Source: a virus
Lineage: Duplodnaviria > Heunggongvirae > Uroviricota > Caudoviricetes
Virus record (IMG/VR): IMGVR_UViG_2541047126_000023
Direction: 5' to 3' (one strand)
DNA length: 4,520 bases
In this document: positions 1 through 606 of the stretch, piece after piece
How the letters are laid out: the number at the start of each line of letters is the position of its first letter
How positions within the stretch are numbered: position 1 is the first letter of the stretch
Notes under the pieces: model-generated
What the model saw: only the letters and a program-made list of their open reading frames with translations
Told to the model about the DNA's origin: nothing
Databases searched by the model: none
Program-made: the position numbers and the translations under genes

Positions 1-606
1 ACGCATATGTCACGACAAGTCACGACAGATACAGATACAGATAAAGAATTAAACCCCACACATAACGCGCGCATGCGCGAGAGTGCTCCAGCCAGTGAGT
101 CGAATGGCGCGCCGTTGCAGACAGCAGAACCTGAATACCTGGACGGCCTGAGCGAACCGATCGGGAAATTTCCGATGACTGGTGTCTGGCAGCCGTCGCC
201 GGATTTTCGACAGCGGGCAGCAGTGTGGGGTATGGCTCTGCCTGAGCCGGAATTTACACCTGCTGAGCTTGCCGCATTCCGGGATTACTGGATGGCGGAG
301 GGGAAGGTTTTCACGCAGGTTCAGTGGGAGCAGAAATTTGCCCGTCACGTGCAGCACGTCAGGGCACAGGTAAAACCAGTCAGCAAGGGGGGAAGCCATG
401 CAGCATCAGGTGGCACGGCATCACGGGCAGTTCAGGAAATCCGGGCTGCACGCGAACAGTGGGAACGTGACAACGGATTTATCAGCAACGGAAACGGCCT
501 GGAAGCTGTGGGAGCTCATGGGGGAGGTGTATTCGAACCGCTGGACTCAGAAGAACGGGGCCGCACCTTCGAAGCTCTGGATTGCCCAGATTGGTGCGAT
601 GACTGA
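1..606 (+). CDS. DnaT-domain phage replication protein (primosomal protein I-like C-terminal domain); probably 5'-partial, first in-window ATG at 7
   Basis: Frame 1 is open from base 1 to TGA 604-606. Residues about 50-125 (IGKFPMTGVWQPSPDFRQRAAVWGMALPEPEFTPAELAAFRDYWMAEGKVFTQVQWEQKFARHVQ) match, from memory, the conserved C-terminal domain of E. coli DnaT (KFAMYPDWQPDADF...YWQAEGKVFHHVQWQQKLA). The N-terminal 50 aa are low-complexity (TDTDTD) and look like an interdomain linker, so the true start is probably upstream of the window. Confidence 0.7.
   Translation, partial: THMSRQVTTDTDTDKELNPTHNARMRESAPASESNGAPLQTAEPEYLDGLSEPIGKFPMTGVWQPSPDFRQRAAVWGMALPEPEFTPAELAAFRDYWMAEGKVFTQVQWEQKFARHVQHVRAQVKPVSKGGSHAASGGTASRAVQEIRAAREQWERDNGFISNGNGLEAVGAHGGGVFEPLDSEERGRTFEALDCPDWCDD
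9..42. repeat. Short direct repeats: GTCACGACA x2 (9-17, 19-27) followed by (ACAGAT)x3 (25-42), then an AT-rich stretch and a 12-bp palindrome CGCGCATGCGCG (68-79)
   Basis: Read directly from the sequence. The repeats lie inside the linker-coding part of the replication gene, the position where the lambda origin iterons lie inside gene O. Confidence 0.5.

Follow-up and report, generated by a model that had tools for sequence, protein, structure and literature searches.

Where two replication genes meet in an E. coli prophage of the Rac-like lambdoid type, a stretch of 209 nt is open in two frames of the same strand, and the locus raises the question of whether both frames are used there and where the downstream gene begins. 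The window, i.e., the whole stretch of DNA that was analysed, comprises 4,520 nt of this prophage and carries the 3' part of an O-like replication initiator gene followed by a P-like helicase loader gene, hereafter called O and P. In RefSeq/PGAP annotation P starts late, at ATG 599 in E. coli with 67 residues missing and at ATG 518 in other genera with 40 missing. A survey of 338 prokaryotic genomes accepted no co-directional overlap of more than 60 bp as real, the longest real one being that of holD/rimI with up to 56 bp (Palleja, Harrington & Bork, 2008, PMC2478687). The positions given in the initial annotation of the window proved exact (frame 1 open to 606, ATG 398 with a G-rich Shine-Dalgarno sequence (SD), ATG 518, ATG 599 and an overlap of 209 nt), and among the alternatives it had named, the genuine long out-of-frame overlap is supported, with P starting 69 codons before the stop of O. 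We consider it likely that the overlap is genuine, conserved and co-directional, and that P is translated from an SD-ATG of its own (385-392 and 398) inside O.

Two reading frames at the O/P junction

The O-like gene occupies positions 1-606 with its 3' part, on the plus strand like the other parts of the O/P junction. Frame 1 is open from the edge of the window, its first ATG lies at 7 and its stop codon TGA at 604-606. Over nt 133-603 this frame is 100% identical to a 265-aa protein of E. coli (P0121), and elsewhere the gene is annotated as DnaT-like ssDNA-binding domain-containing protein or as phage replisome organizer. A DnaT DNA-binding domain (PF17948) was found at 169-369 (aa 55-121 of the ORF 7-606, E = 6e-18) and was modelled by AF2 with a pLDDT of about 90; this domain, the position of the gene directly upstream of the loader and matches to phrog_1408 and phrog_3992 identify the protein as an initiator. 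Beyond the confident DnaT domain, the AF2 model of the O C-terminus consists of a disordered linker, which holds the SD-ATG of P, one helix SRAVQEIRAAREQWERDN (nt 418-471) and a tail of low confidence (nt 475-603).

Frame 2, which is +1 relative to O, is closed by a TAA at 371-373 just 5' of the P start, and ATG 398 is its first start codon. This ATG is preceded by AAGGGGGGAAGCC, with a run of six G (387-392) and a spacer of 5 nt, and the SD of P, AGGGGGGA, extends from 385 to 392 within the O codons for Lys-Gly-Gly. From here the P-like helicase loader gene runs from 398 to 1060 and codes for a long form of 220 aa, as supported by PF06992, phrog_109, the alignment of homologues and AF2/Foldseek. 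The dual-coding region of 209 nt (398-606) holds the C-terminal 69 codons of O in frame 1 and the N-terminal 69 codons of P in frame 2, and falls into two parts. In 398-499 the O frame is dominant and codes for the linker and the conserved helix ASRAVQEIRAAREQWER, and P has a variable, predicted-disordered N-terminus; in 500-603 the P frame is dominant with AWKLWELMGEVYSNRWTQKNGAAPSKLWIAQIGAM, where the equivalent of lambda P domain II has its first helices, and the O frame gives a low-confidence acidic tail, GGGVFEPLDSEERGRTFEALDCPDWCDD. The TGG codons of P Trp35 (500-502) and Trp38 (509-511) lie 5' of the ATG at 518-520, which encodes P Met41, has GGGAG just 3 nt upstream and is the alternative start of a 180-aa form in PGAP annotations of other genera. 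At 599-606, ATGACTGA contains the ATG of P Met68, which overlaps the O stop codon TGA (604-606) and serves as PGAP start of the 153-aa form in E. coli. The peptide MQHQVARHHGQFRK... is particular to the long form of P, which starts at 398.

The initial annotation had regarded about 70 codons open in both frames as unlikely by chance. In synonymous resamplings of the window, frame 2 was open in 59% of the trials given the O protein (P = 0.59), whose Gly/Glu/Arg/Ala-rich tail rarely yields +1 stops, and frame 1 was open in 6.3% of the trials given the P protein (P = 0.063). The +1 frame in the non-overlapping part of O genes contains 0.031-0.060 stops per codon, and at this density 69 open codons would be met by arithmetic with a probability of about 0.01-0.11. 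Across the loci, the P frame given O was open in 0.06-0.74 of the resamplings per locus and is less informative than the O frame given P; the latter remained open in just 0.003-0.17 of them, although every locus tested has it open. The argument from chance is thus modest for the single sequence, and the case for the overlap becomes strong only with comparative data.

Conservation of the start signal and of both frames

Five phage or genome loci were collected by DNA similarity and 43 genome loci by protein patterns. The same pair of O-like and P-like genes was found in 35 loci, the window included, with P identities to the window down to 44%. They represent about 20 genera, among them Escherichia, Citrobacter, Enterobacter, Klebsiella, Salmonella, Phytobacter, Pluralibacter, Kluyvera, Scandinavium, Pectobacterium, Erwinia, Rahnella, Buttiauxella, Dryocola, Serratia, Samsonia, Rouxiella and Limnobaculum. 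As the loci share a phylogeny, probabilities combined across them are not independent. The overlap recurs with a length of 149-224 nt and is a genuine and ancient one, spread across many enterobacterial genera.

An ATG with SD is present at the position equivalent to 398 in 35/35 loci, the SD reading GGAGG, GAGGT or GGGGG and lying 4-9 nt 5' of the ATG in each of them. The ATG is situated 117-150 nt 5' of the P Trp49 codon and is usually the first start past the stop codon of the P frame, which in most relatives opens just a few codons 5' of it, as in the window. The O residue over this ATG, within the variable O linker, is only His, Asn, Tyr or Asp (CAT, AAT, TAT or GAT, i.e., NAT), and the next one is Ala, Val, Glu or Gly (Gnn); with O codons limited to NAT and Gnn, the frame-2 ATG is kept while the amino acid of O changes. 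A Gly-Gly dipeptide is conserved in the otherwise variable linker and supplies the SD. At the distal end the O frame closes 65-80 nt past the P Trp49 codon in nearly all loci (65 in the window), and only in L022 and L039 does it end earlier, at +29 and +32, with a tail about 12 codons shorter.

The peptide encoded by frame 2 is conserved as well. In an alignment of 28 P homologues conservation is strong from Ala34/Trp35 on (AWxxWxxMGEIYSNRWxxKNGxAPSxLWIAQIG), with R48, W49, K52, N53, G54, P57 and W61 conserved in at least 90%. The same holds for Met41 (at least 90%), which is nearly invariant and replaced by Leu in L024 and L026 (Buttiauxella, Dryocola). Conservation is poor over P residues 1-34, where indels occur. 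Over the TGG codons of Trp35 and Trp38 the O residues are Leu, Met or Val (nTG), followed by only Glu, Ala, Gly or Asp (Gnn), and the frame-2 TGG is preserved; the position of both tryptophans upstream of 518 and the restricted variation of O indicate that frame 2 is selected upstream of 518. An ATG at the equivalent of 599 is absent in nine related loci. The comparison of homologues, which the initial annotation had proposed as a check, therefore shows that they do not start at the 599 equivalent, and that the peptide of about 500-598 is among the best-conserved parts of P.

Two Erwinia loci (L029, L037) have a P without an overlapping upstream gene. In Erwinia sp. CGal63 (L029, 1291-3052) a P-like gene stands alone, with no initiator gene; it has an SD-ATG of its own, codes for 26 aa ahead of the AW motif and lies directly 3' of a gene which, as read from the ORF sequence, we take to be ttcA-like. 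Probably this locus is a prophage remnant or the terminal part of a degraded Rac-like prophage, and it is uninformative as outgroup.

In 16 sequences of 63-92% nucleotide identity, the profile of diversity by codon position changes from frame-1 to frame-2 periodicity within the overlap. Mean pairwise diversity at frame-1 codon positions 1/2/3 was 0.255/0.240/0.531 in the DnaT domain, which is frame-1 periodicity, 0.341/0.252/0.391 in 398-499, 0.371/0.121/0.099 in 500-603, where frame-2 periodicity appears with a damped wobble, and 0.51/0.13-0.17/0.10-0.12 in the P-only region, again with frame-2 periodicity. At four-fold sites of the O frame, pi fell from 0.62 upstream of the overlap's limits, i.e., in non-overlapping sequence, to 0.41 within 398-499 (p = 0.012) and to 0.095 within 500-603 (p = 0.001), a drop that shows selection on frame 2 along the entire overlap. 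For the P frame, pi in 500-603 versus outside was 0.47 versus 0.57 at four-fold sites (p = 0.08; 16 sequences), 0.58 versus 0.62 with 30 loci (not significant) and 0.40 versus 0.53 at two-fold sites (p = 0.054). Synonymous sites of the P frame are just marginally lowered here, which suggests that selection on individual residues of the O tail is weak.

Family and fold of the P protein were compared with lambda P. PF06992 (Phage_lambda_P) matches P aa 58-187 with profile positions 31-161 (E = 1e-15, 58.4 bits, cut-off 26), and phrog_109, 'P-like helicase loader', matches aa 18-219 with positions 22-235 of 236 (E = 3e-62); a search of NCBIfam for P gave no model. Residue 69 of P in the window aligns with residue 81 of lambda P. 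The AF2 model of the 220-aa protein is of moderate quality (mean pLDDT 70.5), with helices at 26-53, 59-66 and 70-85 and disordered residues 1-28 (pLDDT <50), and its best Foldseek matches are the lambda P chains 9oa1_Y/Z/V (E = 8e-6 to 3e-5, 194-221 columns, TM 0.41-0.47). In lambda P, domain I (1-29/40) is disordered and domain II (~30-119) compact (PMC12661323). Either of the later starts would cost P its domain I; with a start at 599, at the equivalent of lambda P residue 80, about half of domain II would go as well, and with a start at 518 the first helix turns of that domain. The protein of 220 aa is as long as full-length lambda P, as the initial annotation had noted for the 398 start, and its predicted fold agrees as well. 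By family and fold P is a helicase loader of the lambda P type, its loading function being predicted from sequence and model. The start at ATG 398, which the initial annotation had preferred, is supported by the SD-ATG in 35/35 loci and by the conserved frame-2 peptide, and we infer from these sequence comparisons that it would be the start used in vivo.

Competing explanations and the tail of O

Would a later start of P account for the same observations? If P started solely at ATG 518 (Met41), the overlap would shrink to 89 nt and the open frame 2 upstream would be a tolerated by-product, as might be suggested by the conservation of Met41 (at least 90%), the GGGAG in front of it, the variable and predicted-disordered residues 1-34, and the PGAP start in Salmonella, Citrobacter, Klebsiella, Brenneria and Pectobacterium (180-aa forms). 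However, the GGGAG is just 3 nt off the ATG and is set anyway by the Trp-Glu codons, Met41 is Leu in L024 and L026, and Trp35 and Trp38 lie upstream and are kept via a restricted choice of O codons; moreover, four-fold sites of the O frame are already lowered in 398-499, the P frame is open there in every lineage, and the SD-ATG stands at the 398 equivalent in all 35 loci. A sole start at 518, which the initial annotation had listed, is therefore improbable, and ATG 518 may act as an additional internal start alongside 398. The other start it had listed, ATG 599 coupled to the stop of O (ATGACTGA) with an overlap of 8 nt and a product of 153 aa, follows the PGAP annotation in H1 and H47 and resembles the start/stop motif of short lambda-type O/P overlaps (4-17 nt), but has to be rejected with near certainty: the frame-2 peptide of 500-598 is strongly conserved, diversity in 500-603 has frame-2 periodicity, nine loci lack the ATG, there is no SD upstream, and the product would be without domain I and about half of domain II of lambda P. 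The conserved P peptide upstream and the ATG missing in nine relatives also speak against termination-reinitiation coupling at an ATGA-type junction like that of lambda O/P.

Very little likewise speaks for a programmed frameshift or transcriptional slippage that fuses O to P, with the overlap as shift window, which had been the last alternative of the initial annotation. It could be read from phrog_15931 (482 positions), which matches both O (145-347) and P (279-482), from some database entries that join both proteins, and from the G6 run at 387-392. Yet most relatives have GGAGGT here, i.e., an SD in place of a conserved homopolymer; there is a conserved, independent SD-ATG, and the joined proteins inspected turned out to be an in-frame deletion (P0099) and an indel-ridden assembly (L036). 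A classical slippery heptamer shifts by -1 and could not lead from O into P, which lies in the +1 frame, and the scan for slippery sites found just G GGG GGA at 387-393, the G6 of the SD, a heptamer that likewise would shift by -1 and that the relatives do not conserve. Around the start of P, RNA structure did not exceed that of shuffled sequences (z = -0.43) and so gives no evidence of structure-mediated coupling. Owing to the +1 geometry, the SD run without homopolymer conservation and the lack of structured RNA, the O-P frameshift fusion was a rejected ALTERNATIVES. A search for homologues with the O C-terminus returned only proteins of at most 274 aa and is unusable for counting fusions.

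Two observations concern joined or broken frames in databases. In phrog_15931 one profile covers the O C-terminus and the whole of P, so that the family mixes or fuses two genes; the way the overlap has been annotated in phages is the probable source of this. In Leclercia adecarboxylata NCTC13032 (L036, 2200-3200) several frame changes occur in the overlap, by one of which the P N-terminus enters the O tail beside a G-run, and the region looks like homopolymer indel errors or a decaying prophage.

A further explanation accepts the overlap and the start of P at 398 and regards the last ~35 residues of O as unselected read-through to the first available stop. Synonymous sites of the P frame in 500-603 are not significantly lowered, residues of the O tail flip drastically (W/R, C/F/I/G) together with silent changes in P, e.g., Trp/Arg with silent Ile changes, the tail is shorter in L022 and L039, and its AF2 confidence is low. 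On the other side, given P, the O frame closes early in 83-99.7% of the resamplings per locus, but in about 33 loci it runs on to almost the same codon, and the core EPxDxEE(R/W)...D..D and the acidic end of the tail are kept as far as Serratia and Rouxiella; lambda-type O proteins likewise end in an acidic/aromatic DWNNTDWIxGVFDE. Read-through is rather unlikely on this balance, if somewhat less so than a sole start at 518. Evidence that the O tail matters is found in its kept openness (0.3-17% expected per locus), the conserved position of the stop and the retained core, from which the tail would appear to be functional.

In the preferred reading of a genuine overlap with P starting at 398, the 209 nt would be read twice, frame 1 giving the C-terminus of O and frame 2 the N-terminus of P. 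In 398-499 the conserved O helix would stand opposite a variable, probably disordered N-terminus of P, corresponding to the 'lasso' of lambda P domain I, and in 500-603 the first conserved helices of the domain II equivalent of P would stand opposite a loosely constrained acidic tail of O. The overlap would also make a single recombination unit of the DnaT-domain/tail part of O and the cognate P. O-like proteins of different loci have unrelated N-terminal parts (DUF1376/YdaU-like, helix-turn-helix and other types), and all loci share the DnaT domain, the tail and P; the overlap is thus located within the conserved cassette of a mosaic gene.

Like the lambda-type O proteins, one DnaT-type initiator (P0168) ends in the acidic/aromatic tail DWNNTDWIxGVFDE, and this hints that the tail of O may be its P-specific part. 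A doubtful extension would be that the acidic tail of O and the first helices of P are mutual recognition surfaces, with both halves of an O-P interface on one stretch of DNA. If so, the two halves would co-evolve nucleotide by nucleotide and form a specificity pair inseparable by recombination, which would explain how unrelated origin-binding N-terminal domains came to be swapped onto an invariant cassette of 'DnaT domain + tail + P', and would explain the lambda-type tail on a DnaT-type initiator as well.

Known overlaps, annotation and prophage setting

The pair resembles the lambda O-P module in that an initiator is followed by a P of the PF06992 family with a predicted fold like that of lambda P, and in that mosaic O genes have unrelated N-terminal domains on a common C-terminal part travelling with P. 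From lambda genetics it is known that the C-terminus of O contacts P. The two modules differ in the C-terminal domain of the initiator, which is DnaT-like (PF17948) here and not lambda-O-like, in the sequence of P (about 15-18% identity to lambda P) and in the overlap, which in lambda-type pairs of the same scan amounts to only 4 or 17 nt against 149-224 nt here. The long overlap is therefore regarded as a derived trait of this clade. As in the overprinted or long overlapping genes known from phages and viruses, e.g., phiX174 A/B/K and lambda Rz/Rz1, two proteins are encoded by the same DNA in different frames, synonymous variation is suppressed, and ordered sequence in one frame faces disordered or little-constrained sequence in the other, an arrangement that fits overprinted gene pairs generally. 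Unlike those, the present case is a partial tail-to-head overlap of two old and widespread replication genes; no small new gene has been set into an older one here, and no de novo ORF is involved. Long overlaps are familiar in small phages, so that the kind is already known; a search of the literature for a description of this O/P overlap found none.

The overlaps surveyed in prokaryotic genomes (PMC2478687) likewise join same-strand, operon-like neighbours, whereas the O/P overlap is about four times longer and is conserved across genera. It is a well-supported counter-example to the rule by which co-directional overlaps >60 bp count as errors of annotation (PMC2478687), and it contradicts the reference annotation. 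The RefSeq P of 153 aa is almost certainly too short, and annotation rules derived from overlap surveys probably explain its truncation. The helicase loader of a very common prophage family is systematically truncated in this way, and the part lost is the equivalent of a lambda P domain. Beyond annotation, the overlap offers a natural case of two old proteins sharing coding sequence with order opposite disorder, and permits clean separation-of-function mutations that are silent in one frame and null in the other.

The whole window of 4.5 kb is 97% identical to genomes of the O157:H7 type, in which a Cro/CI-like regulator, a YdaT-family protein, the DnaT-like initiator and replication protein P are followed downstream by a DUF1627 protein, a fimbrial pseudogene, paa and hokD. 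Related DNA is present in at least 1,260 of 5,426 complete genomes of E. coli, and the prophage family extends over E. coli, Shigella and enterobacteria, including O157:H7 prophages and some Stx2a-phage-associated elements.

Several features outside the overlap were observed. The DUF1627 gene 3' of P (1094-1828) contains an in-frame amber codon, TAG 1145-1147, after 17 codons (MGKATSV*LAARL), where relatives have Glu; the TAG is also present in genomes of the O157:H7 type, and the PGAP CDS there begins at a CTG directly after it. Pieces of a fimbrial-protein gene lie at ~1990-2525, and a near-identical region in strain NZRM4169 is annotated as pseudogene (frameshifted, internal stop). At 2688-3446 the window carries the paa gene of attaching-effacing E. 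coli (AcfC family adhesin Paa), coding for a 252-aa SBP_bac_11 protein with a signal-peptide-like N-terminus; it is prophage cargo here, with low-GC DNA on both sides. The toxin gene hokD is situated at 3782-3937, for which the list of ORFs gives an in-frame upstream extension from ATG 3725, and the Rfam family 'sok' (RF01794) matches at 3635-3784 in full length (103.9 bits, reported strand +). At the other end of the window, inside the O-like gene, positions 1-47 contain two direct repeats of GTCACGACA and three of GATACA, followed by an A/T-rich stretch. Only this piece of 47 nt shares 94-96% identity with segments of phage 'replication protein O' genes that are unrelated in other respects (H40-H46), and an iteron/origin element or a mosaic junction could be present here.
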